Shown here in pieces: positions 6,202 through 32,000 of a stretch of 32,000 bases of DNA. Position numbers and translations under genes: made by a program. The stretch comes from Methylorubrum extorquens. GTDB taxonomy: Bacteria; Pseudomonadota; Alphaproteobacteria; Rhizobiales; Beijerinckiaceae. Position 1 is the first letter of the stretch; every line of letters starts with the position of its first letter. Under the pieces are notes generated by a model. That model saw only the letters and a program-made list of their open reading frames with translations, was not told the origin of the DNA and did not search any database. The stretch spans positions 1,830,001-1,862,000 of the forward strand of contig LT962688.1 of NCBI GenBank assembly GCA_900234795.1, written 5' to 3'.

Positions 6202-6215
6202 TTGATCCAGCGCAA
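6202..6215 (+). promoter_or_regulatory. FixK/FNR-type box A (TTGATCCAGCGCAA)
   Basis: A 14-mer that fits TTGAT-N4-NNCAA. Its proximal edge lies 60 nt upstream of ATG 6275 of the P1B ATPase. Confidence 0.7.
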
Positions 6216-6274
6216 GGCAACTCAACCGGAACACGCCCACCCCGGAGGCGCATAACAGCGAAGCGGCTTCGACG

Positions 6275-8197
6275 ATGACGACGGCGGCCGTGGGCTCAAC
6301 CGAGACGGTGCGGCTGGCATCCGTGGGATGGATGCCTCGGCTCCGGGGATGGCTGGCGGTCCTGCCGCTGGTTGGCCTCTGCACGGGCCTGTCGGCACAG
6401 GCGCTCAGTCATCCCGACGTCGCCGCCTGGGCATGGGCGCTCGCGACCGTGGCGGTCCTCGCCGTCCTCGCCTCCCAAGTCGTAACCGGCCTGGTGCGCG
6501 GCAACGTTGGACTCGACCTGGTCGCCCTGCTCTCCATGGGGGGTGCGCTTGCGCTGTGGCAGCCGTTGGCCGGCGCTGTCGTCGCCTTGATGTACGCTGG
6601 CGGCCAATCGCTGGAAGCCTATGCCGCCGGCCGGGCCGGACGGGCGATGACGGCGCTGATCGCGCGCCAGCCGCGCACCGCCCTGCGCGAGGAGGGCGGT
6701 GCGTTGCGGGAGGTGCCCCTCGCGGCGCTGGTCCCGGGAGACCGAATCCTGGTGCGCGTCGGCGACGTCCTGCCGGTGGACGGCCGGGTCGCCGCGGGCC
6801 GCGCCGTGCTCGACCGGTCGAGCCTCACCGGCGAGGCCCTGCCGGTCACCTTCGGTGCGAACGACCCCGTGTTGAGTGGCACGGTGAACGCGGGCACGCC
6901 GTTCACCTTGCTGGCGGAGCGGGCCGCGGCCGAAAGCACGTATGCTGGCATCGTCCGGCTCGTCGAGGCGGCGCGGTCCCAAAAGGCGCCGATGGCGCGC
7001 CTGGCTGACCGCTACGGCCTCGCATTCCTCGCCCTCACGCTCCTGCTGGCTGGCGGCGCCTGGCTCGCCACCGGCGACCCCCTTCGGTCGCTGGCCGTGT
7101 TGGTCGTCGCAACGCCCTGCCCGCTGATCCTGGCGGTGCCCGTCGCCCTCGTCTCCGGCCTCTCGCGCGCGGCCGGCATCGGCGTGCTCATCAAGGGCGG
7201 CGGGGCCCTTGAGATGCTGGCCAAGATCCGCGTCCTGGTGGTCGACAAGACCGGCACCCTGACCCACGGCACCGCCCGGCTCATTTCCGCGCGAACCCTC
7301 GCCGCATGCGACGAGGCCGAGGTTCTGCGGCTCGCGGCGTCCCTCGACCAGGCCTCGGGTCACCCAGTGGCGCGAGCTCTGGTCGATGAGGCCCTAGGGC
7401 GAGGCCTGACACTCTCGCAGCCCACGATGGTCACGGAGTCCCCCGGCCAGGGCGTGACCGGCAAAGTGGAGGGCCGGCCCGTCCTCGTCGGGGGACCGCG
7501 CCTAATGCGGATGCACGACGTCTGCTTCCCGCCGGCAGATGGTCCTCGACACGCCGCGGCAGCGGCGACGGTGCTGGTCGCCATCGACGGCGCGCCCGCC
7601 GCCATCCTTGAATTCGCCGACCCACTGCGGGCGGACGGCGGCAACGCACTCGCGGCGCTGCGCGCGTGCGGCATCGAGCGGGTGGTGCTCGCGACCGGGG
7701 ACCGACGCGGCGTCGCGGAGGCGCTCGTCGCCGGTCTGCCCATCGACGCCGTCGCCGCCGACCTCGACCCGACGGCCAAGACGGATACCGTGGCCGCCGA
7801 GCGCCGGAACGGTCCCGTGATGATGGTGGGCGACGGGGTCAACGACGCGCCCGCGCTGGCGGCCGCCGACCTCGGCGTGGCACTCGGCGCCCGAGGCGCG
7901 GCGGCGGCGGCCGAGGCGGCGGACGTCGTCCTGCTGGTCGACAGCCTCGCGCCGCTGCCCCGCGCCATCCGCATCGCCCGGCGGGCCCGCGCTATCGCGC
8001 TCCAGAGCGTATGGGTCGGCCTTGGGCTTTCGCTCGTCGGCATGGTCGCGGCGGCTCTAGGATACCTCTCGCCCCTCCAGGGGGCGTTGCTGCAAGAAGC
8101 CATCGATGTCGCCGTGATCCTCAACGCCATGCGCGCGCTCGGCGGTCCACAGGATGGGCGCGAGCCGACGACGCAGGGAGGCCCGTGCTGCCCATAA
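6275..8197 (+). CDS. Heavy-metal (P1B-type) P-type ATPase with a TPCP membrane motif and no N-terminal metal-binding domain
   Basis: 640 aa. Motifs: DKTGTLT (VVDKTGTLTHG), S-G-HP (ASGHPVARAL), GDGVNDAPAL, and the helix VVATPCPLILAVP (TPCP codons 7112-7123). The N-terminus is short and hydrophobic. The protein ends ...GGPCCP. Confidence 0.9.
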   Translation: MTTAAVGSTETVRLASVGWMPRLRGWLAVLPLVGLCTGLSAQALSHPDVAAWAWALATVAVLAVLASQVVTGLVRGNVGLDLVALLSMGGALALWQPLAGAVVALMYAGGQSLEAYAAGRAGRAMTALIARQPRTALREEGGALREVPLAALVPGDRILVRVGDVLPVDGRVAAGRAVLDRSSLTGEALPVTFGANDPVLSGTVNAGTPFTLLAERAAAESTYAGIVRLVEAARSQKAPMARLADRYGLAFLALTLLLAGGAWLATGDPLRSLAVLVVATPCPLILAVPVALVSGLSRAAGIGVLIKGGGALEMLAKIRVLVVDKTGTLTHGTARLISARTLAACDEAEVLRLAASLDQASGHPVARALVDEALGRGLTLSQPTMVTESPGQGVTGKVEGRPVLVGGPRLMRMHDVCFPPADGPRHAAAAATVLVAIDGAPAAILEFADPLRADGGNALAALRACGIERVVLATGDRRGVAEALVAGLPIDAVAADLDPTAKTDTVAAERRNGPVMMVGDGVNDAPALAAADLGVALGARGAAAAAEAADVVLLVDSLAPLPRAIRIARRARAIALQSVWVGLGLSLVGMVAAALGYLSPLQGALLQEAIDVAVILNAMRALGGPQDGREPTTQGGPCCP

Positions 8198-8214
8198 GGC
8201 CGGCGCCATCGAGC

Positions 8215-8228
8215 TTGCGGTGGATCAA
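8215..8228 (+). promoter_or_regulatory. FixK/FNR-type box B (TTGCGGTGGATCAA)
   Basis: The 14-mer carries the extended half-site TGGATCAAGG. It lies 58 nt upstream of GTG 8286 and 64 nt upstream of ATG 8292 of the USP gene. Confidence 0.75.
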
Positions 8229-8291
8229 GGTGAGTCGGCCCACGCGAGGCGAGGATCCTCACATCTGTATTGACGCCAGACTGAGGTGGTC

Positions 8292-9104
8292 ATGGACTAC
8301 GCAAATATCCTTGTTTCCGCCGACCTCGGCGACGCGTCCCCTGATCGAGTACGCCTCGCCGCCGGGCTCGCCCGGCGCTTCGACGCCACCCTCACCGGCG
8401 CGGCCGCTCACAAGGTACCGGCGCCCATCCTGGTGCGCGACGTCTACGACGCGAACGAGCAGGAGGAGCGCAACAAGGCCAAGGTTCGCGAGATCCTGGA
8501 AGAGGCGCGCGCCCTGTTCGAGCGCAGCGCCGGTGAAAGGATCCGCACGGAGTGGCTAGCTGCCCTCGCCGGGCCCGCCACGCATCTCGTCGAGCAGGCG
8601 CGCGCCGCCGACCTCGTCGTGGTTAGCCGGCGCGGGCCGGAGGACGAGGACACGGGGCAACTCGGCGTGCGCCCCGGCCCCGTATTGATGGAGGCGGGCC
8701 GGCCTGTCCTCATCGCGCCGCCGCAGCTAGTCCAGCTGAAGGGGACCCGCATCGTCGTCGCTTGGAAGGACAGGCCAGAGGCGCGGCGTGCAGTGACGGC
8801 GGCGCTGCCCTTCCTGCGCGACGCGGACCAGGTCTTCGTCGCGACGGTCGGAGACGACGCGGGGCATGAAGGGGCGGAGGCCGTGACCGGCCACCTCGTG
8901 CGGCACGGCGCCCACGCCACCACCCACCTCATGCGCGCGGTCCGGCAGGAGAGCGACGATATCCTGGAATTCGCCCAGCACCAGGATGCCGACCTCGTCG
9001 TGATGGGCGCCTACGGCCACTCCCGGCTGCGGGAGTGGATTTTCGGGGGGGTCACCCGCGATGCCCTCGAACGCTCCCCCGTCTGCTGCCTGATGAGCCA
9101 CTGA
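8292..9104 (+). CDS. Universal stress protein, tandem UspA-domain type (270 aa)
   Basis: MDYANILVSADLG... through ...ADLVVMGAYGHSRLREWIFGGVTRDALERSPVCCLMSH shows two USP-like halves and the G-x2-G-x9-G-S/T-type ATP motif context. A GTG at 8286 is an alternative start. Confidence 0.88.
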   Translation: MDYANILVSADLGDASPDRVRLAAGLARRFDATLTGAAAHKVPAPILVRDVYDANEQEERNKAKVREILEEARALFERSAGERIRTEWLAALAGPATHLVEQARAADLVVVSRRGPEDEDTGQLGVRPGPVLMEAGRPVLIAPPQLVQLKGTRIVVAWKDRPEARRAVTAALPFLRDADQVFVATVGDDAGHEGAEAVTGHLVRHGAHATTHLMRAVRQESDDILEFAQHQDADLVVMGAYGHSRLREWIFGGVTRDALERSPVCCLMSH

Positions 9105-9433
9105 TGCGCAGGCATGCCCTACCCGTTCTCACCGCCGTCGCCTTGAGCTTGCTCGTCGCCTTGCCCGTCGGGGCCCGGGACGCTTCGGCGGTGCGGGGCG
9201 AGGCGTTTGCCCGCGAGCACTGCGCCCGGTGCCATGCGCTCGGGCCACGGGGAACAAGCCCGATGCGCGAGGCCCCGCCCTTCCGCACGCTAGCCGGGCG
9301 CTTCCCGGTCGACGACCTTGCCGACGTCTTGGCCGAGGGGGTGGACCGCCGGCACCCGGCCATGCCCGACTTCCGGCTCGACCCCGCCGACGCCGCCGAC
9401 CTGGCGGCCTACCTCAAGGCTTTTCGCCGCTGA
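9104..9433 (+). CDS. Small periplasmic c-type cytochrome (109 aa)
   Basis: ATG 9104 overlaps the USP stop (TGATG). The product has a signal-peptide-like N-terminus (MRRHALPVLTAVALSLLVALPVGA), a single CXXCH motif (CARCH, 9221-9235) and a distal Met context (HPAMPDF). Confidence 0.85.
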   Translation: MRRHALPVLTAVALSLLVALPVGARDASAVRGEAFAREHCARCHALGPRGTSPMREAPPFRTLAGRFPVDDLADVLAEGVDRRHPAMPDFRLDPADAADLAAYLKAFRR

Positions 9434-9519: not shown

Positions 9520-9732
9520 TTACTCGACGAAGCGCCAGCCGGTCTCTAAGGCGCGGAGTTCCTCCTCGTTCAGCGGGGCCGGCCATTCCGGCTGGTTCGA
9601 TGTCCGCACCTGGGCCGGCGCCTCGTCGCGCTTTGGATTCTTCGGCGCGGATTCGGTTTGCCGACACGCAGCGTTGCGCGTCTGCGCGGTCCGGCTGGTC
9701 GCGCCGCATCGTGACGATCTTCGCTTGAGCAT
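9520..9732 (-). CDS. Hypothetical small protein (70 aa)
   Basis: It starts 16 nt after the stop of the upstream USP gene on the same strand. GGGAGG lies 7 nt before the ATG. Third-position G+C is high. The sequence is basic and low in complexity, ending PEWPAPLNEEELRALETGWRFVE. Confidence 0.5.
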   Translation of the reverse strand: MLKRRSSRCGATSRTAQTRNAACRQTESAPKNPKRDEAPAQVRTSNQPEWPAPLNEEELRALETGWRFVE

Positions 9733-9748: not shown

Positions 9749-10609
9749 TCAGTGGGCGAGGAACAGCGGAGTCGGGCTGCCCCGCAGGAGCGACCGCGTC
9801 ACGCCGCCGAAGAAGAATTCGCGGATGGGGGAGTGCCGGTAGGCGCCCATCACGATCATGTCGGCCCGGAACAGCCCGGCCTGGGTGCGAAGGGTGGCGG
9901 CGACGCTCTCTCCTTTCGGAAGGTCGTTGACGCTGATCCGCACGCCATGCCGAGCGAGGTGGGGCGCGAACTCCGCGCCCGGCACCGCTTCGTCGCTCTC
10001 CGCCTCGTCGCCGACCGAAACGATCTCGACCGCCTCGGCCGCGCGGAGGAACGGTAGCGCATCGTTGGCGGCTCGCGCCGCCTGCGCGCTCCCGTCCCAG
10101 GCAACGATGATCCGTCGCGCGGCGAAGGCGTCGTGTCCCGACGGGACTGCGATGACCGGCCGGCCACCGTATAACAAAGCCTTCTCGATCATCTCGCGGT
10201 CGAGGTCGTAGGTCCCTGGTCCCGTATCGAGGATTGTCAGGTCGTGCAGCCGGGCCCCCGCGGCCAACCGACTCACGATGTCCGGGTAGGGCAGGCTCGG
10301 CGCTTCCGTCGTGCAGACCAATCCGGCCTGCGCCGCGTCCCCGGCCGAGCGCTCCGCGATGGAGTGGGCCAGCGCGTCGAGCCGTCGGTCGATAACCGCG
10401 ACTTCCTCGTAATCGAAGTCTCCGAGCCAGGCGTCGTCGCCCGAGAGGCGCCAAGAGGCTGACTGGACCGTCAAATGGGCACCGGCGGCCTTGGCCAGCG
10501 TCAGGCCGTAGCCGATGGCAGAGGGGACGTCCTCGCGCTCGCCTTCCAAAGCGGTGCCAACGAAAACGTCGCGGATGGCCGCGAGGGGGGATGGGAGGTT
10601 TTTGGACAT
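9749..10609 (-). CDS. Universal stress protein, tandem UspA-domain type (286 aa)
   Basis: MSKNLPSPLAAIRDVFVG... through ...ADMIVMGAYRHSPIREFFFGGVTRSLLRGSPTPLFLAH. It is a paralogue of 16029-16889 and has the same length. Confidence 0.9.
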   Translation of the reverse strand: MSKNLPSPLAAIRDVFVGTALEGEREDVPSAIGYGLTLAKAAGAHLTVQSASWRLSGDDAWLGDFDYEEVAVIDRRLDALAHSIAERSAGDAAQAGLVCTTEAPSLPYPDIVSRLAAGARLHDLTILDTGPGTYDLDREMIEKALLYGGRPVIAVPSGHDAFAARRIIVAWDGSAQAARAANDALPFLRAAEAVEIVSVGDEAESDEAVPGAEFAPHLARHGVRISVNDLPKGESVAATLRTQAGLFRADMIVMGAYRHSPIREFFFGGVTRSLLRGSPTPLFLAH

Positions 10610-10666: not shown

Positions 10667-10680
10667 TTGATCCACCTCAA
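10667..10680 (-). promoter_or_regulatory. FixK/FNR-type box C (TTGATCCACCTCAA; the reverse complement equals boxes I and J)
   Basis: The proximal edge lies 58 nt upstream of the USP start at 10609. Read toward that gene, the sequence is TTGAGGTGGATCAAGG. Confidence 0.8.
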
Positions 10681-10931: not shown

Positions 10932-12482
10932 ATGACGTCATCCATTGCCTCGCCGAGCACGGATCAAGGCAGCAACGGCACGCGGGCCCTCGAAGAGCTT
11001 CGGCAGACCCTCGACGAGGCCGGCGTCTGCATCTGGTCGCTGGACATCCCGACCGGCCAGGTCACGGTCTCTCCGACCTGCGCCCACCTCTTCGGCGTCA
11101 CGCCCGAGCAACTGACCACTTTCGCCGCAACACAGGCCTTGGTGCACCCTGAGGACCGCCCGGCCCGGGCGGAAGCCATCCAGCGAGCGCTGCGGGAGGG
11201 TGGGAGTTACGAGGTCGACTACCGGGCCCTGCGGCCGGACGGGCATGCCTGCTGGCTGCGCTCGCGCGGACGCGTGATTCTCGACGCGGACGGCCGACCG
11301 GCACGTCATCGTGGCGTCGTCCTCAGCATCCACGAGCAGAAGCAGGCCGAGGCGGACCTGTGCGCCCGTGAGGCACATCTCCGTTCGATCCTCGACACCG
11401 TGCCCGAGGCCATGGTCGTCATCGACGAGGTCGGCACCATCAACTCCTTCAGCACAGCGGCCGAGCGCCTCTTCGGTTACACGGCCGCAGAAGTCATCGG
11501 GCAAAACGTCAGGTTGCTGATGCCCGAACCGATGCGTGGCGAGCACGACGGCTACCTCGATCACTACCGGCGGACACGGGAGCGGCGCATCATCGGGACC
11601 AACCGGGTCGTGACAGGCCAGCGGGCCGACGGCACGACCTTCCCGATGGAGCTCGCCATCGGCGAGATGCGCTCAGGCGAACAGGTGTTCTTTACCGGCT
11701 TCATCAACGACCTTACCGAGCAACAGAGGACGCAGCAGCGGCTCCAGGAACTCCAGTCCGAACTCGTCCACGTCTCGCGCCTGAGCGCGATGGGTGAGAT
11801 GGCCTCCACCCTGGCGCACGAGTTGAACCAGCCGCTCGGTGCCATAGCCAACTACACCAAGGGTTGCCGCCGCCTGCTCGCAAATCCCGGTCCGGAGGCC
11901 ATCGCCAAGTCGATGGAGGTTCTTGACAAGACCGCCGAGCAGGCGCTGCGGGCCGGCCAGATCATCCGGCAGCTCCGGGAGTTCGTTATGCGCGGCGAGA
12001 CGGAGCGGCGACCAGAGCCAGTCTGGCGGCTGATCGAGGAGGCGAGCGCCTTGGCCTTGGTCGGCGCTCGGGACCAGGGCGTCGTCGCCCGCTTGCGGGT
12101 GGCCCCCGGCCTGAAGGCCGTGCTGGCTGACCGGGTCCAGGTCCAGCAGGTCCTGGTCAATCTCATGCGGAACGCGCGCGAGGCGATGCAGCAGAGTGAA
12201 CGGCGCGAGATGGCCGTCGACGCCCATGCGCTCTCTTCCGAGGTGGTCGAGGTCTCGGTGTCCGATACCGGCCCTGGCATCGCGGACGAGGTCGCCGACC
12301 GGCTATTCCAGCCGTTCGTCACCACCAAGGCGAGCGGAATGGGCGTCGGCCTCTCAATATGCCGCACCATCATCGAGGCGCATGGCGGTCGCCTCACCGT
12401 CGAGCGGAACGTGGCCGGTGGGGCCACCTTCCGCCTGACGCTGGCGACCGCCACCGAGGGAGACACGGCGAATGGCACATAG
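10932..12482 (+). CDS. fixL: Oxygen-sensing histidine kinase FixL (soluble; PAS, heme-PAS, HisKA, HATPase_c)
   Basis: The heme-PAS block [43 protein letters not shown]...[32 protein letters not shown] closely resembles Bradyrhizobium FixL as I remember it. The proximal His codon is at 11544-11546. The H-box reads [21 protein letters not shown], and N/G boxes follow. No TM segments are present. Confidence 0.93.
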
Positions 12483-13080
12483 CCTCGTGCACGTCGTCGA
12501 CGACGATCCGGCGATGCGGGATTCGGTCGGCTTCCTGCTCGACACCGCAGGCTTCGAGGTCGCGCTCTACCGGGGAGGGACAAATCTCCTTGCCACACTG
12601 CCGAGGCCGGCCCGGGGCGCCGTCCTAACTGACATCCGCATGCCCGGCATCGACGGTCTGGAACTGCTGCGCCGCCTGCGAGCGGGCGGCCACACGCTTC
12701 CCGTGGTGGTGATGACAGGACACGGTGACGTGCCGCTCGCGGTCGAGGCGATGAAGCTCGGGGCCTGCGACTTTATCGAGAAGCCCTTCAACGACGAGGC
12801 GTTGCTGCAGGCGCTACGTTCCGCCCTGGATCGAGCCGGACCGGCCGAGGCAGCCGACCCCAGCCTACAGGAATTCATCCGGCGGGTGGGGACCTTAAGC
12901 CACCGCGAGCGGCAGGTCCTCGACCAACTGGTCGCGGGAGGCACCAGCAAGGAGATCGGACGCGCACTCGACCTCAGTCCGCGCACCGTCGAGATCTACC
13001 GGGCAAAGCTCATGGCGAAGACGCAGGCGACCGGCTTGCAGGAACTGGTGCGCTGGGCAGTGCTGGCCGGCCTGGCCTGA
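12472..13080 (+). CDS. fixJ: Response regulator FixJ (REC plus LuxR-type HTH)
   Basis: It overlaps the fixL stop by 11 nt. The REC domain has VHVVDDD...[12 protein letters not shown] (Asp codon 12631-12633)...[11 protein letters not shown]. The C-terminal part is [40 protein letters not shown]. Confidence 0.93.
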
Positions 13081-13082
13081 GG

Positions 13083-13096
13083 TTGAGGCAGGTCAA
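13083..13096 (+). promoter_or_regulatory. FixK/FNR-type box O (TTGAGGCAGGTCAA)
   Basis: It begins 3 nt after the fixJ stop codon. It lies 74 nt upstream of ATG 13170 of the single-domain receiver and is followed by GG, as in the other boxes. Confidence 0.7.
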
Positions 13097-13169: not shown

Positions 13170-13559
13170 ATGTCGACACCTCTCCCTTCGCCCATCTACG
13201 TCGTAGACGACGACCCAGCGGTCCTGCAATCGCTCTGCTTCCTGCTCGAGGGCGAGGGGCATCGTGTCGAGGCCTTCGGCAGCGGGGCGTGTGTGCTGGC
13301 CGCATTCCCAGGACCGGAGCCGCACTACATCGTCGTCGACTATGTCATGCCGGCGATGGACGGGATCGAGGTATTCAGTCGTCTGCGCGCCCTCGACGTC
13401 CGCGCGCCCGTCGTCCTGATGACTGGCGACCCCGGTGTCTCGGTGCGTCGGCGCGCCCGCGAGATTGGATTGCCGCTGATCGAGAAACCGCTCGCCTACG
13501 AGCCCCTGCTCGCCATGCTCGCCACAGGCGTCGTCCTGTCCCCCAATGCCTCGCCCTGA
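13170..13559 (+). CDS. Single-domain response-regulator receiver protein (129 aa); candidate for a FixT-like role
   Basis: MSTPLPSPIYVVDDDPAVLQSLCFLLEGEGHRV...IVVDYVMPAMDGIEVFSRLR...VVLMTGDP...LIEKP shows a REC fold with an acidic pocket and the phospho-acceptor Asp. There is no output domain. Confidence 0.85.
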   Translation: MSTPLPSPIYVVDDDPAVLQSLCFLLEGEGHRVEAFGSGACVLAAFPGPEPHYIVVDYVMPAMDGIEVFSRLRALDVRAPVVLMTGDPGVSVRRRAREIGLPLIEKPLAYEPLLAMLATGVVLSPNASP

Positions 13560-13583
13560 TATCAGGGTCTCGCGACGTTCGGC

Positions 13584-13616
13584 CCGCCGCGAGTTTTTGC
13601 GGGCGCGGCGGCTTTC
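13584..13616 (+). terminator. Candidate intrinsic terminator after the fixLJ-receiver genes
   Basis: An 8-bp GC stem pairs CCGCCGCG (13584-13591) with CGCGGCGG (13604-13611) around a 12-nt loop, followed by CTTTC. The T-run is short, so the call is tentative. Confidence 0.4.
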
Positions 13617-13699
13617 GCGGATCGGCCCAAGGCGCAGCGTGAAGGGAGAGATGTGCGCGTTCCCCGATCCGGCTGACGTCAAGACTGACCGGCCCGGCA

Positions 13700-14092
13700 T
13701 CATGCGCCTTGATCTGGCGCAACCCGGCCCCGGCGCCCCGTGGTCAGGCGCCGGCGCGGGTCGGTGTCGCCCGCAAACGCACGCGAGTCCTGCGCATGCG
13801 CTGCCCAGGTCCGAGAGTACCTCGGCGACAGGGTCTCGCAAGGATGGTGGAATAGATAACAGCCGAACGCGGCAGTAGCCTCGCGAGCGGGATGGGGCTG
13901 GAAGCCGAACGGCAGGCTTCGATCCTCGCTCACCTCAGTTCCGAAGCTCCATGCGTGAGCGTGGACGAAGTAGGGGGTCAACAGCCCCTCACGCACGGCG
14001 CAGCACAGCCCCGGAGCGAACCGATGCTGAAAGACGCGATATCTCGCGGAGCGAAGTGGCCTGGCCGGCATCGGAACCCGTCCTGCTGACAT
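13700..14092 (-). CDS. Hypothetical Cys/His-rich protein (130 aa)
   Basis: It lies 57 nt downstream of the phasin-like gene on the same strand, and GAGGG lies ~8 nt before ATG 14092. Third-position G+C is ~70-75% by my codon-by-codon count. The core is RYRVFQHRFAPGLCCAVREGLLTPYFVHAHAWSFGTEV...CYLFHHPCE. The Arg-rich tail reduces confidence. Confidence 0.4.
   Translation of the reverse strand: MSAGRVPMPARPLRSARYRVFQHRFAPGLCCAVREGLLTPYFVHAHAWSFGTEVSEDRSLPFGFQPHPAREATAAFGCYLFHHPCETLSPRYSRTWAAHAQDSRAFAGDTDPRRRLTTGRRGRVAPDQGA
13709..13722. promoter_or_regulatory. FixK/FNR-type box K (TTGATCTGGCGCAA), orphan
   Basis: The 14-mer matches well, but no credible start codon lies 55-105 nt away on either strand. 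It sits inside the last codons of the candidate ORF 13700-14092. Confidence 0.5.
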
Positions 14093-14151: not shown

Positions 14152-14469
14152 TCAGGCCACCTTTGCGAAGGCGGTGGCCCTGACGTCGTGCAACTGCGTT
14201 GCCGCCTCTTTCCGGTAGTCGTCCAAGCTTTTGGTCACGAAAGTCGTCTGGAGCTCGACGGCCTCGTTGAGCGAGCCGCACCGGGCCAGCGACGCAAGAT
14301 GCTTCGCTTGTTCTTCGAGGCGCCGTCCAGTGAAACGCATCGTTTCCGCCGCGAGGCGCAACGGGAGGTCGATGGCGAGGGTGCGCCATGTGGTCAGGGC
14401 GGCGCTGCGCGCCTCGGCCGGGTTCCCGGTACCCTGGGTGTGCGGATGCGGCGCGCGTTCGGAATGCAT
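14152..14469 (-). CDS. Phasin-like protein (105 aa)
   Basis: An internal ATG at 14469 has GGGGAG 6 nt upstream. The C-terminal two-thirds (…MRFTGRRLEEQAKHLASLARCGSLNEAVELQTTFVTKSLDDYRKEAATQLHDV…) resembles the phasin (Phasin_2) family pattern as I remember it. Confidence 0.55.
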   Translation of the reverse strand: MHSERAPHPHTQGTGNPAEARSAALTTWRTLAIDLPLRLAAETMRFTGRRLEEQAKHLASLARCGSLNEAVELQTTFVTKSLDDYRKEAATQLHDVRATAFAKVA

Positions 14470-22327: not shown

Positions 22328-22338
22328 GGAGGCTTGCC

Positions 22339-24327: not shown

Positions 24328-24391
24328 CGCGTCCTCCTTGGGATGTTGTCTGGGCCGGTCTCGACTGTGGCCGCGGGCTGCATCCGCAACC

Positions 24392-24405
24392 TTGAGGCAG
24401 ATCAA
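24392..24405 (-). promoter_or_regulatory. FixK/FNR-type box M (TTGAGGCAGATCAA)
   Basis: The proximal edge lies 65 nt upstream of the flavodoxin start at 24327, and the box lies 16 nt downstream of the natural ackA stop (24421-24423). Confidence 0.7.
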
Positions 24406-24420
24406 GACCGTCCTGGCGGC

Positions 24421-25534
24421 TCAGCGCTCGCCGAGCAGGCCGGCCACGGACAGCGCGATCTCGCGCTCCTCGTTCGCCTGGACGATGCGGATGGCGACCG
24501 TTGACGACGGGTCGTCGATGCACGCTTTGCCCTAGCCGGTGACGGTCGCGTCGAGGACAAAGCCGGCGAAGGCGAGCCCTCGGCAGATGCTGGCACGGAC
24601 GTTTGCGGCGTGCTCGCCGACGCCGCCGGTGAAGACGAGGGTGTCGAGGCCGCCGAGCGCCGCGATGAGCGAGCCCGCCTCCCGGACGACGCGGTAGCTG
24701 AACAGGTCCAGGGCCTCGCGTGCCTGGGGAGCCCCGGTGCCCTCCAAGTCCCGCACGTCGTCGCTGATGCCCGAGACGCCAAGCAGCCCCGAGCGCTCGT
24801 TCCGGAGTTCGGCCACCGCGTCGGGGGTGAGGCCGCGGTCTCGGATCAGGTGCAGCACCAAGCCCGGGTCTACCGCGCCGCTGCGGGTGTCCATCATCAG
24901 TCCATCGAGCGTGGTCAAACCCATCGTAGTGGCGACGCTGCGCCCGTCTCGGATCGCGCAGAGGCTGGCCCCGTGCCCAAGATGGGCCGCGAGCACCCGG
25001 CCGTGCGGGTAGGTCCGGGCGACATGAGCGTAGGACAGGCCGTGGAAGCCGAACCGCACGAGGCCCTCGTCGATGAGGGCGCGCGGCAGCGGGTAAAGCT
25101 GGGCGAGCCTGCCCTGCGTCCGATGGAAGGCCGTGTCTAAGCAGGCGACCTGTGGCAGGTGCGGCCACGTCTCCGCGACTGCGCGGATGCAGGCGAGAGC
25201 CTGCGGCTGGTACGCCGGGGCTAGCGGCACGAGTTCCTCCAGCGCCTCCATGACGTCCGCGTCTAAATGGACGGGCGCCGCGTGGCGCAAGCCGCCGTGG
25301 ACGATGCGGTGCCCGACCGCCTCCGGCGCCGAGGGCACCGGCGCGAACAACCAGCGGGCGACCGCAGCGTGGTCGCATACCGGGGAGCCCGCCATCCGAT
25401 GCGACGCCGTTGACCGTGACCCGCGGCTGCCGCCTGATGCCGGCGACGTGGGCACGCCAGACCGGCTCGCCTGCGCCCGGCGGGAACAGGCCGCAGCGCA
25501 GGCTGGAGGAGCCAGCGTTCAAGACATGGATCAT
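24421..25534 (-). pseudogene. ackA: Acetate kinase gene disrupted by one frameshift and one in-frame TAG
   Basis: ATG 25534 lies 8 nt after the xfp stop and gives MIHVLNAGSSSLRCGLF...RVTVNGVASDG in one frame. The homology then continues in another frame (…CDHAAVARWL…VGHRIVHGG…DTAFH…GFHGLSY…HLGHGASLCAI…DTRSG…TGGVGEH…), so the switch lies between ~25380 and ~25440. TAG at 24532-24534 is followed in frame by GKACIDDPSSTVAIRIVQANEEREIALSVAGLLGER*, the usual AckA C-terminus. Confidence 0.8.
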
Positions 25535-25542
25535 CGCCGGCC

Positions 25543-28089
25543 TCAGGCGTTGCACGCCCGATCGTCGGCGGTCCTGGCCGGTCGCGGCTCCTCGGCACCG
25601 GCTGTGTCGCACTGCATGATGTCGGCCTCGATGCGGCGGCGGTCCGGATGTTCGTCGCCATGCCGATCCGGCCAGGACCAGTCCTTGACCTCCGGTAGAT
25701 CATCCCCGGCCCGGCAGACGTGCACGCGGTGGGCGGCCAGCGCATCGCGGAGCGCCTCCTCGGCGTGCTCGCCCCGGGCTCCCAGCCCCGGGACGGCCCG
25801 CAGGGCGGCCTGAGCCAGGTGGTAGCGGTCGAGGCGGTTCAGCACGCACATGTCGAACGGCGTGGTCGTTGTGCCCTCCTCGATGAAGCCGTGCACGTGG
25901 AAGTTGCCGTGGTTCGTCCGCTTGTAGGTCATCCGATGGATGAGCCAGGGATAGCCGTGATAGGCGAACATCACCGGCCGGTCGCGTGTGAACAGGCTGT
26001 CGAATGTCGGGTCATCGAGCCCGTGCGGGTGCGTCTCGCGCGCCGGCAGGGTCATCAGGTCGACGACGTTGACGACCCGAACCTTGAGCTCCGGGACGTA
26101 CCGGCGCAGCCAATCCACGGCCGCGAGCGTCTCCTGGGTGGGCACGTCGCCCGCGCAGGCCATCACCACGTCCGGCTCCGCCTCGCCCTCGTTCGAGGCC
26201 CAGTCCCAGATCCCGACACCGGCCGCGCAATGCCGGGCCGCCGCGTCCATGTCGAGCCATTGCAGCGCGGGCTGCTTGCCGGCCACCACGACGTTGATGC
26301 GGTCGTAGGTGCGTAGGCAGTGATCCATGACGCAGAGCAGGCAGTTCGCGTCCGGCGGCAGGTAGATCCGCGCCGTGTCGCCGCGCTTGTTCGCCACGAA
26401 GTCGATGAAGCCCGGATCCTGGTGGCTGAAGCCGTTGTGGTCCTGGCGCCAGACATGGGACGAGAGCAGGATGTTGAGCGAGGGCACCGGCCGGCGCCAG
26501 GGCAGGTCGCGCGCGGACTTCAGCCACTTGGCGTGCTGGTTCACCATCGAGTCGATCACATGCGCAAAGGCCTCGTAGGTCGCGAACAGGCCGTGCCGTC
26601 CGGTCAGCACGTAGCCCTCCAGCCAGCCCTCGCAGAGGTGCTCGCTCAGCACCTCCATGACGCGACCGTCGCGCCCGAGATGGTCGTCCTCGGGCAGGAT
26701 CTCTTCCTGCCAGGCGCGGCTCGTCACCTCGAAGACGGCGTCGAGGCGGTTCGAGGCGGTCTCGTCGGGACCCATGATGCGGAAGTTTCGAGCCTCCGCG
26801 TTCAGGGTCAGGACGTCCCGCAGGTAGACCCCGAGCGCGCGCGTGGCCTCGGCCTTGGTACGACCGCGCTCCGGCACGGTGACGGCGAGACGCCGGAGCT
26901 CCGGGAGCCGCAAGGGTGCGCCCCTGTGCGCGTTGGCGTGCGGGTTGGCTGACAGGCGCCGCGGCCCCCGCGGCGGCAGCGCGGCGAGGTCGGGGACGAG
27001 CGAGCCGTCCGGCGTAAACAACTCCTCCGGCCGGTAGGAGCGCATCCAGCGCTCCAGGATCGCACGGTGCTCCGGGTTCTCGCGCACGGCGGCGACCGGC
27101 ACCTGGTGCGAGCGCCAGGTGCCCTCGACCGGCTTGCCATCGACGCTCCCCGGCCCAGTCCAGCCCTTCGGGCTGCGCAGCACGACCAAAGGCCAACGCG
27201 GTCGCCCAGCTTCGCCGCGTCTCGCCCGTATCCGGATCTCTGTGATGGCGTCGAAGGCTGCGTCAAGCGCCGCCGCCATGGCTTGGTGCATGATGGCCGG
27301 CTCGTCGCCTTCCACGAAGGTCGGCTCGTAGCCGTAGCCGACGAGCAGGCTGCGCAACTCCTCGCGGGGTATGCGGGCGAGGACGGTCGGGTTTGCGATC
27401 TTGTAACCGTTGAGATGCAGGATCGGCAGGACCGTCCCGTCGGACCGCGGGTCGAGGAACTTGTTTCCGTGCCAGGCGGCCGCCAGCGGGCCGGTTTCGG
27501 CCTCGCCGTCGCCGACCACGCAGGCGACCGTCAGACCGGGATTGTCGAGGGCTGCGCCGAAGGCATGCGCCAGGGAATAGCCGAGCTCTCCGCCCTCGTG
27601 GATCGAGCCGGGCAACTCGGGCGAGGCATGGCTCGGGATGCCGCCGGGGAACGAGAACTGCCGGAACAGCCGGGCCATCCCGTCGAGGTCGTGCGCCACG
27701 TCCGGGTAGGTCTCGGCGTAGGTGCCCTCCAGGTAGGCGTTGGCCACGAGCCCCGGCGCCCCGTGGCCGGGCCCCCAGACCGCGATCATGTCGAGGTCGC
27801 GCTCGCGGATGACGCGATTGAGGTGCGCGTAGATGAAGTTCAGGCCCGGTGTCGTACCCCAGTGCCCGAGCAGCCGCGGCTTCACATGCTCGGGCTTGAG
27901 CGGCTCGCGCAGGAGCGGGTTGGCCATCAAGTAGATCTGGCCGACCGACAGGTAGTTCGCGGCGCGCCAGTAGGCGTCGATCTGCCGGAGGCCGTCAGGC
28001 CCGATCGGCCCGGGTACGAACGCCAAGCCGTCGCCGTCGTCTCGACATTCGCCGTCGTGGTGCTCCCTCGAACCGTGTGTTGCGTCCAT
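25543..28089 (-). CDS. xfp: Phosphoketolase (xylulose-5-P/fructose-6-P phosphoketolase)
   Basis: 848 aa counted from ATG 28089, which has GGGAGG 6 nt upstream. The signature reads [46 protein letters not shown], with the TPP-binding block [11 protein letters not shown]. The ORF-track start at 28119 is 10 codons longer. Confidence 0.92.
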
Positions 28090-28145
28090 GTCGGCCTCCC
28101 GGCGGATATCCGGGATCACCGTGCCGGCGGCCGGGACCGGCGGCG

Positions 28146-28159
28146 TTGAGGTGGATCAA
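28146..28159. promoter_or_regulatory. FixK/FNR-type box I (TTGAGGTGGATCAA), shared by divergent operons
   Basis: It lies 57 nt from the xfp ATG (28089, minus strand) and 58 nt from ATG 28217 (plus strand). The 14-mer is identical to box J and to the reverse complement of box C. Confidence 0.8.
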
Positions 28160-28216
28160 GGCGCCCCCGGTGCATGCCGGCAGGATAGTCCTCGTCAGGC
28201 AAGACGGGAGCGAACG

Positions 28217-28417
28217 ATGGCCCTGGTTCTTCGATCTACCTTCGTCACCACGGTCCGCCGCGCGCGGGTGCCGATGATGCGAGCACCGTCGGACGACGCC
28301 GGTACCCGGCTCGTCATGGATGCCGCGCGTTACCGGAGCATCGGTAGCCTGCAGGCTCTGGCACTGGCCGTCGCGGCGTCGGCGGTGACGCCGGCGCTGC
28401 TCTGGCTGGCCCTCTAA
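28217..28417 (+). CDS. Possible small membrane-anchored protein (66 aa)
   Basis: An internal ATG in ORF 28088-28417 has GGGAG ~8 nt upstream. The product is MALVLRSTFVTTVRRARVPMM...SLQALALAVAASAVTPALLWLAL, with a C-terminal TM segment. It ends 29 nt before the BON gene. Confidence 0.45.
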   Translation: MALVLRSTFVTTVRRARVPMMRAPSDDAGTRLVMDAARYRSIGSLQALALAVAASAVTPALLWLAL

Positions 28418-28446
28418 GTTCCTCCAACGAACCAAGGAGACGGGCG

Positions 28447-29094
28447 ATGGACGACATCACCGTGCACCGGCACGTGCTCGACGAGCTGGACTACGCCCCG
28501 GTGATCGACGCGGCGCAGATCGGCGTCACCGTCGAGAACGGCATCGTCACCCTGACCGGCCACGTCCGGAACTACGCCGAGAAGAGTATCGCCGAGCGAG
28601 TCGCGCTTCGGGTCCGCGGGGTGCGGGGCGTGGTCGAGCGGATCGAGGTCCGGTACCCAGACAACCCAAGCGTCGGCGACGAGGCCCTGGCCGAGCGCTG
28701 CGCCCGGGTCCTCGAATGGGACGTGCGGATCCCGGAGGGCTCAGTCACGCTTAAGGTTGAGCGCGGCTGCGTCACACTCCAGGGGTGCGTGCCCTACTAC
28801 CACCAGAAGGCGGCCGTCGATAAGGCGCTGCGGCGCCTAGCCGGCGTCACCGACATCGTCAACATCATCGCCGTGAAGCCGCCCGCGCAGGCCGTTGAGG
28901 TGAAGTCCCGCATCCTCGCGGCCCTGAGGCGGAGCGCCCGGGACCCGGACACGATCCAGGTGCACGTGGACGGAGGCAAGGTCATCCTCGATGGGTGCGT
29001 CGACGTCTGGCGCGACCGTGAGCTCGCCGAGCGGGCGGCGTGGTCGGCCCCTGGCGTGCGGGCTGTCGAGGACCGCCTGACGCTCGCCAGCTGA
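28447..29094 (+). CDS. BON-domain (OsmY-like) protein (215 aa)
   Basis: AAGGAGA lies 6 nt before the ATG. It is a paralogue of 21677-22327 with the same three-repeat layout (VTVENGIVTLTGHVRNYAEKSIAERVALRVRGV...). Confidence 0.88.
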   Translation: MDDITVHRHVLDELDYAPVIDAAQIGVTVENGIVTLTGHVRNYAEKSIAERVALRVRGVRGVVERIEVRYPDNPSVGDEALAERCARVLEWDVRIPEGSVTLKVERGCVTLQGCVPYYHQKAAVDKALRRLAGVTDIVNIIAVKPPAQAVEVKSRILAALRRSARDPDTIQVHVDGGKVILDGCVDVWRDRELAERAAWSAPGVRAVEDRLTLAS

Positions 29095-29103
29095 GGTTCG
29101 CCG

Positions 29104-30087
29104 ATGCTGGCGATGGTCCTGCGCGAGGTCGGCGCTCCCCTCGTCCCGGAGGAGCGTCCGGACCCGGTTCCTGGGCCGGGCGAGGTCCGCATCCGGGTTG
29201 AGGCCTGCGCCGTCTGCCGTACCGACCTCCACCTCATAGACGGCGAGCTTCCGCAGGCGGTCTACCCCATCGTGCCGGGCCACGAAGTCGTCGGGTGCGT
29301 CGAGGCCCTCGGTTTAGGCGTGACCGAGCCTCGACCGGGTACCCGCGTGGGCGTGCCCTGGCTCGGGCATGCCTGCGGGCATTGCCGCTACTGCGGGAGC
29401 GGCCGCGAGAACCTCTGCGACGCGCCCGGCTTCACCGGCTGCACGCGCGATGGCGGCTTCGCGAGCCACCTCGTGGCCGAGGCCGCCTTCACCATCCCGC
29501 TCGACCCGGCCCTCGACGCGGTCGCGACGGCGCCGCTCCTTTGCGCTGGTCTGATCGGCTGGCGCACGTTGCGAATGGCCGGGGAGGCTGGGACCGTTGG
29601 ACTCTATGGCTTCGGGGCGGCTGCCCACATCATCGCGCAGGTCTGCCGCTGGCAGGGGCGGCGCGTGTTCGCCTTCACTCGGCCAGGCGACCGGGAGGCG
29701 CAGGCCTTCGCCCGCACGCTGGGAGCGGAGTGGGCTGGGGACTCCGACGGCCAGCCGCCCGAACCGTTGGACGCCGCGCTCATCTTCGCCCCAGACGGGA
29801 GCCTCGTGCCCGCCGCTCTTGCAGCGGTTCGCAAGGGCGGCCGCGTGGTCTGCGGCGGCATCCACATGAGCGACATCCCGGCCTTCCCCTACGACCTGCT
29901 CTGGGGCGAGCGCGCGGTGTTATCGGTGGCGAACCTGACCCGCGAGGACGCGCGGACCTTCTTCGAGATCCTGCCGCAGGCCGGCATCGTCACCCGTACA
30001 CGCGCCTTCCCCCTCACTCAGGCCAACGCGGCCATCGCAGCCCACCGCTGCGGGGCTCTTCAAGGTGCAGCCGTCCTCGTCCCCTGA
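29104..30087 (+). CDS. Zinc-dependent alcohol dehydrogenase family protein (327 aa)
   Basis: Catalytic-zinc ligand context: CAVCRTDLH and PGHEVVG. Structural-zinc Cys cluster: CGHCRYCGSGRENLC. Rossmann motif: GLYGFGAAAH. Confidence 0.88.
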   Translation: MLAMVLREVGAPLVPEERPDPVPGPGEVRIRVEACAVCRTDLHLIDGELPQAVYPIVPGHEVVGCVEALGLGVTEPRPGTRVGVPWLGHACGHCRYCGSGRENLCDAPGFTGCTRDGGFASHLVAEAAFTIPLDPALDAVATAPLLCAGLIGWRTLRMAGEAGTVGLYGFGAAAHIIAQVCRWQGRRVFAFTRPGDREAQAFARTLGAEWAGDSDGQPPEPLDAALIFAPDGSLVPAALAAVRKGGRVVCGGIHMSDIPAFPYDLLWGERAVLSVANLTREDARTFFEILPQAGIVTRTRAFPLTQANAAIAAHRCGALQGAAVLVP

Positions 30088-30127
30088 GTCGGTTCGTCCG
30101 GCGTCGGCGGACGGCGCCCCTCTACTC

Positions 30128-30141
30128 TTGAGGTGGATCAA
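30128..30141 (+). promoter_or_regulatory. FixK/FNR-type box J (TTGAGGTGGATCAA)
   Basis: It lies 68 nt upstream of ATG 30209 of the USP gene and carries the extended TGGATCAAGG. Confidence 0.78.
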
Positions 30142-30208
30142 GGTCCGAGCCGCCGACGCGCGCAGGATGCCTTCATCTGGCCGGCGAGCCCGGCGGAGGG
30201 AGGCGGGC

Positions 30209-31024
30209 ATGAGGATCTCCAACATCATGGTTTCGGTCGATCTCGGGTCCGCGGCCGCGGACCGCGTCCAGATGGCGGCGGGTCTCGCCGAGCGGTTCGA
30301 GGCCAGGCTGACCGGCGTCGCCGCGCGCCCGATCCTCGGTCCCATGCCGGTCGGCGACATGCTGGAGGTCGAGCGCGCCTGGGCCGCCGAGGAGCGCTTG
30401 GCGGACGAGCAACTGGCGGAGGCCAAGGCTCTGTTCGAGCGCGAGGCTGGGCAGGCACCCCGGACGGAGTGGCGCTCCGCCCGCGCCGATCCGCTGGCCT
30501 ATCTCGACAACCAGGCGCGCGCCGCCGACGTTGTGGTCGTCGGTCGGCAAGGCCCAGCGGACGGCGACCCGGGCCTGATGGGCGTTCCGACCGGAGCCCT
30601 GTTGATGGAGGTGGGGCGTCCCGTGCTCGTGGTTCCGCCCGGCATCGAGCGCCTCTTGGCGGGGCGCATCGTGGTGGCCTGGAAGGACACGCGCGAGGCA
30701 CGCCGGGCGGTCCATGACGCGCTGCCGTTCCTGACCCGGGCCGACGAGGTTCACGTCGCCGTCGTCGGCCCCGACGCCAACCGCGAGGGCACTGAGGACT
30801 TGGCCGCCTACCTGTCCGGGCACGGCATCAAGGCCAGCACCCACCTACTGCCGAGCCCGGCCATCGGCCCCGCCGACGAATTGCTTCGGTTCGCCCAGTG
30901 CGAGGAGGCGGACCTCGTTGTGATGGGCGCCTACGGCCATTCCCGCCTCCGCGAGTGGATGTTCGGCGGTGTCACCCGCGACGTCCTACAGACGACGCCC
31001 GTCTGCTGCCTGATGAGCCACTGA
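30209..31024 (+). CDS. Universal stress protein, tandem UspA-domain type (271 aa)
   Basis: GGAGGGAGG lies upstream of ATG 30209. It is a paralogue of 8292-9104 and shares the C-terminus ADLVVMGAYGHSRLREWMFGGVTRDVLQTTPVCCLMSH. Confidence 0.9.
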   Translation: MRISNIMVSVDLGSAAADRVQMAAGLAERFEARLTGVAARPILGPMPVGDMLEVERAWAAEERLADEQLAEAKALFEREAGQAPRTEWRSARADPLAYLDNQARAADVVVVGRQGPADGDPGLMGVPTGALLMEVGRPVLVVPPGIERLLAGRIVVAWKDTREARRAVHDALPFLTRADEVHVAVVGPDANREGTEDLAAYLSGHGIKASTHLLPSPAIGPADELLRFAQCEEADLVVMGAYGHSRLREWMFGGVTRDVLQTTPVCCLMSH

Positions 31025-31356
31025 TGCGCCCGGCAGCCATCCTCGCGACCGGCGCTCTGGCGCTGCTTCCCGGCCTCCTCTCCCTCCCGGCGAATGCCTG
31101 GGACCGGCAGGTGAAACAGGGCGAGACCCTCGCCCGGAACAACTGCGCCCGCTGCCACGCCGTCGGGCGCGCCGGGGCGAGCCCGCTGCGCGCGGCGCCA
31201 CCCTTTCGCGAACTGCACACGCGCTACCCCGTCGAGGACCTCGGCGAGGCGCTCGCCGAGGGCATCCGAACGGGCCATCCCGGCATGCCCGAGTTCCGGT
31301 TCGACCCGGACCAGGCCGAGGCCCTGATCGCCTATCTCAAGTCCCTGGAACGCTGA
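31024..31356 (+). CDS. Small periplasmic c-type cytochrome (110 aa)
   Basis: It has the same TGATG overlap with the USP stop as the 9104 copy. It has a signal peptide, CARCH, and HPGMPEF. Confidence 0.85.
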   Translation: MRPAAILATGALALLPGLLSLPANAWDRQVKQGETLARNNCARCHAVGRAGASPLRAAPPFRELHTRYPVEDLGEALAEGIRTGHPGMPEFRFDPDQAEALIAYLKSLER

Positions 31357-31371
31357 GCGAGGAGACCCCTG

Positions 31372-32000
31372 ATGTTCCTGCGCTGCCTCCTCGTTCCTAC
31401 CGCCCCTGGTGTCGATGCTACGCGCCGGCTTGATGCAGCCCTGCGCCTGGGCCGGCGTTTGCATGCCCACATCGCCGTCAGCTTTATGGCGCCCGGCCCG
31501 GAGCACGTCATGGCCAGCATGGCGAGCCTGGTTCCCCTGGACTGCGCGACCATCGACGCCATCGGAGCGGGGCGTGCGCGAGGCCGCGGCCGAGGGCAAG
31601 GCGGCCGTCCAGGCCTGGTGTCAGCGCGAGGGGGTGCCGTTCATGTCGTCCGGCGGGCGGCTCGACGCCACCTTCGCGACCTGGGCCGAACTCTCGGGCG
31701 AAATCGAGCCGCTCCTGACCCTTGCCGGCCGGATCAACGATCTCGTCATCGTCGACCGGCCGGATCCAGGCGTGCCGTTCACGGGACGCGCACTCGACAC
31801 CGCCCTGTTCTCGGTCGGACGCCCGACGCTGATGGTCGGCCATGCCGTTCCCTACGACCTGCTCGACCACGTCATGATCGCCTGGAACGGCAGCCAGGAG
31901 GCGACGCGCCTGATCGGGCAATCCATCACGCTGCTGCACGAGGCCACCCGGGTCACCGTCCTCCAGGCGCGAACGGAGCGATTCGAGGAGGCGCCAACGG
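31372..32000 (+). pseudogene. Tandem USP-type gene with an apparent +1 frameshift; 3' end lies outside the window
   Basis: GAGGAG lies 8 nt before ATG 31372. Frame 1 gives MFLRCLLVPTAPGVDATRRLDAALRLGRRLHAHIAVSFMAPGPEHVMASMASLVPLDCATIDAI. The protein-like sequence then continues only in the next frame from ~31565 (ERGVREAAAEGKAAVQAWCQREGVPF...RINDLVIVDRPDPG...VMIAWNGSQEATRLIGQSITLLHEA). This could be a sequencing error rather than true decay. Confidence 0.65.

Follow-up and report, generated by a model that had tools for sequence, protein, structure and literature searches.

The analysed window is a 32,000-nucleotide stretch of Methylorubrum extorquens DNA (contig LT962688.1, positions 1,830,001 to 1,862,000; window coordinates are used below) that carries fixL, fixJ and fixK together with genes for universal stress proteins (USPs), BON-domain proteins, ion pumps and redox enzymes. 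Because the window is GC-rich (∼69%), genes were called from the G+C content at third codon positions (GC3) and from codon statistics, and they were named by Pfam and NCBIfam profile matches. From its sequence, the segment 6202–32000 is quite probably the larger part of a chromosomal Methylobacterium low-oxygen response island built around fixL-fixJ, a fixT-like gene and fixK. Positions 20209–32000 are 100% identical to the chromosome record CP001510.1 (GCA_000022685.1, 5,511,322 bp), which we take to be Methylobacterium extorquens AM1, and 99.95% identical to CP110131.1. We rejected a plasmid origin, as plasmid records matched single genes only and the window sits on a 5.5-Mb chromosome record. 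On the identical chromosome record the island extends at least 9 kb beyond the window end, and the whole island measures ∼33 kb.

The regulatory genes lie in the middle of a region dense in FixK-type boxes and form a conserved core in every related locus examined; the core order fixL-fixJ-receiver-fixK-USP-BON-USP is also found in metagenomic Methylobacterium-like contigs. The product of fixL (10932–12482, plus strand) contains two PAS domains, one of them a haem-PAS, followed by HisKA and HATPase_c. It matches the FixL model over its full length (670 bits, E = 1.7e-201), under that model's strict equivalog cut-off of 850 bits, and FixL haem-domain structures match it with E = 1.9e-50; its putative haem-ligand histidine was compared by eye only, with the B. 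japonicum sequence. The adjoining fixJ (12472–13080, plus strand) encodes a receiver domain and a LuxR-type helix-turn-helix domain (NF006900, 269.7 bits; cut-off 255). Directly after fixJ lies a FixT-like gene (13170–13559, plus strand) for a single-domain response regulator, a candidate feedback inhibitor that consists of a receiver domain only, with a perfect FixK box (13083–13096) centred 80.5 bp upstream of its ATG at 13170. A receiver-only gene behind a FixK box fits negative feedback on FixL. The window protein has two cysteines, and the four-cysteine motif of Caulobacter FixT is absent. The CRP/FNR-type regulator gene fixK (14980–15687, plus strand) encodes the CRP/FNR domains and has Caulobacter FixK as its best NCBIfam model (226.6 bits, under the 300-bit cut-off). 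By eye, its N-terminal region holds two cysteines and no FNR-type four-cysteine cluster, and its recognition helix reads ETVSR; we tentatively assign it to FixK over another CRP/FNR paralogue, also because the gene adjoins fixLJ.

A search for TTGA-N6-TCAA in the 32-kb window returned 7 perfect boxes (0.05 expected) and 16 boxes with at most one mismatch (3.1 expected), all of the latter inside 6202–30141. Of these 16, thirteen fall no more than ∼110 bp upstream of a start codon; in 11 cases the box centre is 60–84 bp upstream. Two further boxes are ∼108 bp upstream, one from the P2-type ATPase gene and one from the DUF6455 gene if the internal ATG at 20489 is taken (the GTG start of the longest open reading frame (ORF) is 24.5 bp from the box). 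Two of the boxes are each shared by a divergent gene pair. Past the window end, the identical chromosome record contains six extra FixK-type boxes, 64–80 bp upstream of gene starts. Boxes at orthologous promoters are retained in the related loci of Methylobacterium sp. Leaf123 (L001) and M. isbiliense (L002), with conservation also in L004 and L006, and both box sequence and spacing are kept across species. The first-pass annotation of this DNA had proposed that the gene set is wired to FixLJ-FixK, and the box counts and their retention among relatives strongly support FixK wiring as predicted from sequence.

The left edge of the box-dense region is marked by a one-mismatch box at 6202–6215 (TTGATCCAGCGCAA), centred 66.5 bp upstream of the ATG of a P1B heavy-metal P-type ATPase gene (6275–8197, plus strand, 640 amino acids; TIGR01525, 479.5 bits). 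This ATPase lacks HMA and hemerythrin domains and carries TPCP within its membrane region; it scores best with general heavy-metal and Cd/Zn models rather than copper (FixI-type) ones. TPCP is a signature of P1B-5 (Nia-type Ni/Fe) pumps, a subgroup in which some proteins have a hemerythrin domain at the C-terminus and to which the window ATPase may belong. The next box (8215–8228, one mismatch) is 64.5 bp upstream of tandem USP1 (8286–9104, plus strand, 272 amino acids, two Usp stretches), whose stop codon overlaps the start of a small class I cytochrome c gene (9104–9433, plus strand; CxxCH, signal peptide). A perfect box at 10667–10680 stands 64.5 bp upstream of tandem USP2 (9749–10609, minus strand, 286 amino acids) and 258 bp upstream of fixL. 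Two more perfect boxes lie close together between the fixT-like gene and fixK, one (14525–14538) 62.5 bp upstream of a phasin-like gene (14152–14469, minus strand; Phasin_2, 29.4 bits) and the other (14579–14592) 67.5 bp upstream of the small ORF at 14653.

To the right of fixK, one-mismatch boxes precede tandem USP3 (16029–16889, minus strand; box 16946–16959, ∼63.5 bp), the P2-type cation ATPase of 914 amino acids (16997–19741, minus strand; box 19843–19856, 108.5 bp from the ATG), the DUF6455 gene, whose product has a Cys-rich C-terminus (20094–20573, minus strand; box 20591–20604), and the gene for BON protein 1 (21674–22327, plus strand; box 21596–21609, 71.5 bp). The remaining three placed boxes are perfect: 24392–24405 is 68.5 bp upstream of a flavodoxin-like gene (23839–24330, minus strand), which has weak matches below the Pfam cut-off; 28146–28159 lies between divergent genes, ∼63.5 bp from the full-length phosphoketolase gene xfp (25543–28089, minus strand) and 64.5 bp from the small ORF at 28217; and 30128–30141 is 74.5 bp upstream of tandem USP4 (30209–31024, plus strand). 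One and the same 14-mer (TTGAGGTGGATCAA) forms the boxes at 28146 and 30128. The stop codon of USP4 overlaps the start of a second small CxxCH cytochrome c gene (31024–31356, plus strand). The arrangement of a tandem USP gene with a small cytochrome c gene thus occurs twice (8286–9433 and 30209–31356), with overlapping stop and start codons each time, and the two pairs are diverged duplicates with ∼71% DNA identity.

The other genes of the set encode a homologue of zeta, the F1Fo-ATPase hydrolysis inhibitor (21280–21624, plus strand; PF07345, 83.6 bits against a cut-off of 25, profile positions 1–101 of 102), aquaporin Z of the MIP family (23050–23796, minus strand), BON protein 2 (28447–29094, plus strand), a Zn-dependent alcohol dehydrogenase (29104–30087, plus strand) and USP5 (31574 to the window end at 32000, plus strand), which runs off the window and is 219 amino acids long in the full chromosome record. 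Each of the two BON proteins has three BON repeats and, by eye, no signal peptide. All members of the gene list given by the first-pass annotation (five tandem USPs, BON proteins, aquaporin Z, phasin-like protein, zeta homologue, ion pumps, phosphoketolase, alcohol dehydrogenase, flavodoxin and cytochromes c) were found, the flavodoxin weakly, and no cbb3 oxidase genes of the fixNOQP or fixGHIS type occur within the window, as it had stated. The ackA pseudogene, the FixT-like regulator, the DUF6455 gene and the pta and S41 peptidase remnants are additions to that list. Past the window end, in locus L008 (11366–20816, window-equivalent 31574–41024), follow USP5, USP6, a third BON protein, genes for an Nramp transporter, for a K-channel-like and for an SPW-repeat protein, split glucokinase calls, then USP7 and finally a second Crp/Fnr regulator of 285 amino acids, which lies at the island's right end. 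The whole island has seven USP genes, two beyond the five of the window.

Several members of the set are decayed. The ackA pseudogene (24421–25534, minus strand) has a frameshift near 25380–25400 and an in-frame stop near 24531, which leave the first ∼50 codons in another frame and the last 36 codons behind the stop. The repaired conceptual AckA can be aligned over its whole length with acetate and propionate kinases of solved structure, and the same truncated call is present in two independent assemblies, with no gaps relative to the window. Between the DUF6455 and zeta genes, positions 20605–21255 hold only gene remnants, a C-terminal fragment of pta (minus strand) and a fragment of an S41 peptidase gene (plus strand), that are absent from L001. 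A minus-strand ORF in this block (20736–21125) was rejected as a gene, since only its last ∼32 amino acids are Pta-like (below the cut-off) and the rest is antisense to the S41 fragment. The zeta orthologue of L001 lies behind a perfect box, 66.5 bp upstream of the ATG, which it shares with the divergent DUF6455 gene; in the window, the remnants, a block of 650 bp, stand between zeta and that box, and zeta has no FixK box upstream. Given the decay of ackA and pta and the separation of zeta from its box, the acetyl-phosphate-to-ATP step and zeta control are, as judged from the sequence, not intact in this strain. The fermentative branch proposed at first is decayed in this strain, with two lesions in ackA and a remnant of pta, and the placing of zeta within the FixK programme is not supported.

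Content also varies among relatives. Both L001 and L002 are without the stretch from ∼21634 to 28118/28331, a 6.7-kb module of BON1, ORF 22339, aqpZ, the flavodoxin-like gene, ackA and xfp, and from L002 the phasin-like gene and ORF 13700 are missing as well. The island seems to be an assembly of exchangeable FixK-box modules.

The first-pass annotation singled out seven small ORFs, four of which look like genuine small genes restricted to this lineage, with coding-like substitutions: a hydrophobic, weakly conserved protein of 74 amino acids upstream of fixK (14653–14877, plus strand); a Methylobacterium-only protein of 79 amino acids with a signal-peptide-like start and a C-terminal CRGC (15749–15988, plus strand); a lineage-restricted membrane protein of 75 amino acids (19870–20097, minus strand) whose start overlaps the DUF6455 stop; and a protein of 66 amino acids with a hydrophobic C-terminal tail upstream of BON2 (28217–28417, plus strand), with a match in L002 and weak ones in two metagenome loci. 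A relation of ORFs 14653 and 19870 as paralogues, raised by a weak tblastn cross-match, was rejected when direct BLASTP gave no alignment. A fifth ORF, predicted at 13700–14092, is a conserved small protein gene with its start at 14071 (13700–14071, minus strand) and belongs to a Methylobacterium-only family of ∼90 amino acids. Its family has invariant CC and HHPCE motifs and a third-position excess of substitutions (24, 20 and 39 at the three codon positions), and the protein may bind a metal or cofactor. The gene lies downstream of the phasin-like gene and is lengthened to 123 amino acids in this genome.

The ORF at 9520–9732 (minus strand, 70 amino acids), downstream of USP2, remains doubtful: a conserved ribosome-binding site, ATG and C-terminal segment, with conservation that stops at the stop codon, speak for a gene, but its substitutions are without the third-position excess seen in the other small ORFs. 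A one-mismatch box overlaps the start of this ORF, probably by chance. The seventh, given as 22339–23000, is really 22339–22827 (plus strand), and ORF 22641–23000, which covers the tail of the original interval, has poor codon statistics and was rejected as non-coding. We likewise discarded the long minus-strand ORF 22646–25612, which fails the GC3 filter and lies across real genes that are read in other frames.

The 22339 protein belongs to an orphan family with a conserved core of ∼125 amino acids and 334 database matches, in Methylobacterium, Microvirga and Alsobacter; it has no Pfam or NCBIfam match. The Microvirga homologue adjoins cytochrome c and USP genes and has a perfect box 83 bp upstream, and in Alsobacter a one-mismatch box lies 63 bp upstream of the homologue. 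FixK-type boxes ahead of this gene are conserved across the three genera. Structure prediction had been suggested for the proteins without assigned function, and for this one AlphaFold gives a confident, mostly-beta core (mean predicted local distance difference test score 79, with 78 residues at or above 90), for which a fold search of the PDB returned no match (best E 0.14, TM-score 0.30).

For the box at 13709–13722 (one mismatch; perfect in both L001 and L002), neither strand has an ORF that starts at the usual distance. A block of ∼100 nt at 13574–13674 (minus strand) starts exactly 41.5 nt from the centre of this box and is a candidate FixK-dependent small RNA. The block is preceded by a variable spacer of 34–36 nt and is 89% identical over eight Methylobacterium-type loci. 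It has a stem whose apical loop is C/U-rich, together with a GC hairpin, and two pairs show compensatory changes. Searched with a covariance model, each locus gives exactly one strong match, and on the gene maps the element falls between the fixT-like gene and fixK. A pattern scan of metagenomes gave 33 loci, of which ∼8 are true homologues and the remainder chance 20-mer matches in GC-rich DNA. No credible Rfam match to the block was found, comparison with shuffled sequences gave no thermodynamic signal (z = +1.06), and a conserved 3′ region belonging to the fixT-like gene would be an equally good reading of the block. The C/U-rich loop resembles an anti-Shine-Dalgarno sequence, and the RNA would be a functional analogue of the E. 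coli small RNA FnrS. It is conceivable, though somewhat short of probable, that the island carries unstudied members of an oxygen response in this FnrS-like small RNA, the orphan 22339 family and the CC/HHPCE protein.

To place the island among known systems, we compared it with four published ones. The closest studied locus is lxa of the obligate aerobe Burkholderia cenocepacia J2315, a set of 50 genes that is strongly induced at 6% oxygen, whose deletion lowers anoxic viability and which its authors liken to the DosR regulon (Sass et al. 2013, PMC3721108). Compared by domain content with Table 4 of that paper, and not by orthology, lxa shares with the window a wealth of USPs (six in lxa), a Zn-dependent alcohol dehydrogenase, a small cytochrome c (c551/552 in lxa), a cation P-type ATPase, acetate kinase and Pta genes (decayed in the window), its own CRP/Anr-type regulator and two-component systems, and an Anr/FNR-like palindrome, TGA-N6-TCA, upstream of genes (PMC3721108). 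The two "phospholipid-binding" proteins of lxa, which we take as BON-type, correspond in number to the two BON proteins of the window (PMC3721108). In gene content and upstream palindrome, the window sequence agrees with the lxa type. The two differ in that lxa has a betaproteobacterial host and contains alpha-crystallin, nitroreductase, class II ribonucleotide reductase, polyhydroxyalkanoate synthesis and ABC transporter genes that are not in the window, whereas the window has phosphoketolase, aquaporin, a zeta homologue, the P1B ATPase, and FixLJ with a FixT-like gene inside the cluster. For lxa, both induction and the survival phenotype have been demonstrated, whereas the window is known from sequence alone.

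A core FixK regulon has been predicted that is reported to be well conserved in the Bradyrhizobium/Rhodopseudomonas/Methylobacterium group of Rhizobiales; its predicted members include FixL, FixJ, phosphoketolase, Zn-dependent alcohol dehydrogenase, a class I cytochrome c and a kinase as well as hypothetical proteins, under the same regulator family and box as in the window (Dufour, Kiley and Donohue 2010, PMC2908626). Under microoxic conditions B. diazoefficiens induces USPs, phosphoketolase, alcohol dehydrogenase and phasin, in a FixLJ-FixK2 response (PMC6515984). In both studies the genes appear as scattered orthologue sets rather than as a contiguous island of ∼33 kb, no survival or dormancy role is discussed, and the parts read make no mention of the small-RNA candidate, the 22339 family or the Methylobacterium-specific small proteins. 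The island is likely the Methylobacterium counterpart of both the predicted Rhizobiales core FixK regulon and the B. cenocepacia lxa locus.

Caulobacter crescentus is an aerobe and is not known as a nitrogen fixer. The FixLJ-FixK-FixT circuit of Caulobacter crescentus has the same set of fixL, fixJ, fixK and a receiver-only gene as the window, and its FixT is a FixLJ-induced, receiver-only feedback inhibitor (PMC7078487). Its regulon mainly serves high-affinity oxidases and haem synthesis, and a USP-rich island is not part of the description in PMC7078487; the four-cysteine Fe-S motif of its FixT is called unique to Caulobacter FixT (PMC7078487), whereas the window protein has two cysteines only.

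The mycobacterial DosR (DevR) regulon, to which the gene mix had been compared, likewise has many tandem USPs and a P2-type cation ATPase, is induced by hypoxia through a haem-based sensor kinase, and has a proposed role in non-replicating survival (PMC3721108, PMC12071387). DosR is a NarL-type response regulator served by GAF-haem kinases (DosS/DosT), whereas the window has FixJ, the PAS-haem kinase FixL and a CRP/FNR protein. The DosR palindrome (core GGGAC-N4-GTCCC, at most one mismatch) is not enriched in the window, with 1 match against 3.4 expected, and DosR-type control was rejected. The locus is not a member of the DosR regulon; the parallel stands as a functional analogy, with no sign of common regulon descent. 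A 2025 review already parallels FixLJ-FixK to Lxa with DosRS and Anr (PMC12071387). The locus is an example of an already published type, and its concept is not new (PMC3721108, PMC12071387, PMC2908626); the locus itself is undescribed, because our search for papers on how M. extorquens responds to oxygen found none.

Following the established FixLJ-FixK model, a fall in oxygen would let deoxy-haem FixL autophosphorylate and pass its phosphate to FixJ, which would activate fixK. FixK dimers would then bind the TTGA-N6-TCAA boxes in class II CRP/FNR placement and switch on ∼12 transcription units, and the receiver-only protein, made from its own FixK box, would feed back on FixL. Together the products would help a non-growing aerobe to survive on little energy. 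The tandem USPs and BON proteins may serve protection, and the two P-type ATPases in the window, with the Nramp transporter and K-channel-like protein outside it, ion balance; the aquaporin would be a further part of the survival set. The small c-type cytochromes and the flavodoxin-like protein could transfer electrons, the Zn-dependent alcohol dehydrogenase could reoxidise NADH and phosphoketolase could form acetyl-phosphate.

We weighed four other accounts of the island. Members of known FixK regulons include cbb3 oxidase genes (PMC2908626, PMC6515984), and the island might be an accessory arm of microaerobic respiration in which the cytochromes c serve a cbb3 oxidase whose genes lie elsewhere, the P1B ATPase provides or removes metals needed in oxidase assembly, and the rest are passengers. 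The coupling of each of the two class I cytochromes c to a USP gene and the position of the P1B ATPase behind a FixK box would suit this account, and a single window cannot reveal targets of the regulator elsewhere. Most units (USPs, BON proteins, aquaporin, P2-type ATPase, alcohol dehydrogenase, phosphoketolase) are nevertheless non-respiratory, the best models of the P1B ATPase are not of the copper type, and in the case of lxa it is a survival phenotype that an obligate aerobe shows (PMC3721108); we regard the account as improbable. The claim of the first-pass annotation that the genes resemble a dormancy programme more than a respiratory fix regulon was nonetheless overstated, because one window cannot decide this and cbb3 genes may lie elsewhere under the same regulator. 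It is unlikely, if less so, that another CRP/FNR regulator, such as the 285-amino-acid protein at the right end, mainly reads the boxes, with FixLJ-FixK as an upstream trigger or uninvolved. Such a gene is present in the island extension, FNR, FixK and DNR have very similar sites and overlapping regulons (PMC2908626), and lxa encodes its own Anr-like regulators (PMC3721108). Against it stand the position of fixLJ, the fixT-like gene and fixK amid the box-dense region, their presence as a core in every related locus examined and the perfect box of the fixT-like gene itself; and because cascades from FixK to a second regulator are known, the account is more a refinement than an alternative.

The lesions raise the prospect that the island is a relic in decay that has little function at present, kept only since loss is slow. 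The frameshift and stop in ackA, identical in two assemblies, the remnants of pta and the S41 peptidase gene, the separation of zeta from its box, the split glucokinase calls just past the window and the varying module content among relatives all point that way. Over 25 intact ORFs with normal codon bias, boxes that keep sequence and spacing across species, and small-ORF substitutions concentrated at third codon positions are set against them and make the relic account very improbable. Lastly, BON proteins, USPs and many small proteins of no assigned function are typical products of the alphaproteobacterial general stress response (PhyR-NepR-EcfG), to which the island might belong instead of to an oxygen response. 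The EcfG-type promoter GGAAC-N16/17-CGTT has 0 matches in the 32 kb, whereas every unit checked has a FixK-type box; we ruled out PhyR/EcfG control for lack of the motif in the window and consider membership in that response barely credible.

The low-oxygen survival island read here from FixLJ-FixK and its boxes has several points to its disadvantage. Three of the 16 boxes are not upstream of any start codon; those at 9725 and 24905 look like chance matches, of which ∼3 would be expected, and the third, at 13709, is the conserved box that may act as a small-RNA promoter. Box sequence cannot separate FixK from other CRP/FNR paralogues, and the island encodes a second Crp/Fnr protein at its right end. 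The class II CRP/FNR geometry, with its short 5′ leaders, would follow from box-to-ATG distances. The survival or dormancy role is plausible by analogy only, and our literature search found no study of oxygen limitation in M. extorquens. The acetyl-phosphate step and zeta control that are not intact weaken the "fermentative" and "ATP-saving" picture for this genome; and with several members decayed and the BON1-xfp module absent from two relatives, the set is neither fixed nor clearly all functional. The dormancy-like mix of genes proposed at the outset is thus borne out as far as it matches the lxa locus, which supports anoxic persistence, while its role here would follow by analogy and the idea as such has been published before.

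M. extorquens, a leaf-surface bacterium and model methylotroph, is used in bioprocesses that are often limited by oxygen transfer. An island of ∼33 kb with ∼20 FixK-type boxes would map its low-oxygen response and offer candidate oxygen-responsive promoters, and the uncharacterised proteins and the one candidate small RNA would make a short list for roles in survival of oxygen deprivation. It would also place the lxa-type hypoxia-survival arrangement of an aerobe in the alphaproteobacteria, under FixLJ-FixK, and indicate that parts of an lxa-type locus (ackA, pta, zeta control) can decay in a lineage. The island opens no new concept.

Positions 1–6200 carry genes unrelated to the island. They include a cut ORF at 3–308, identified by eye only, an SRAP peptidase gene, a gene for an EEP-family nuclease/phosphatase and several ORFs of no assigned function. 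There is no GC shift across the left boundary of the island. A scan of the window against Rfam gave as its sole match a tRNA-Met gene (4448–4523, plus strand), which lies 1.7 kb to the left of the first FixK box.

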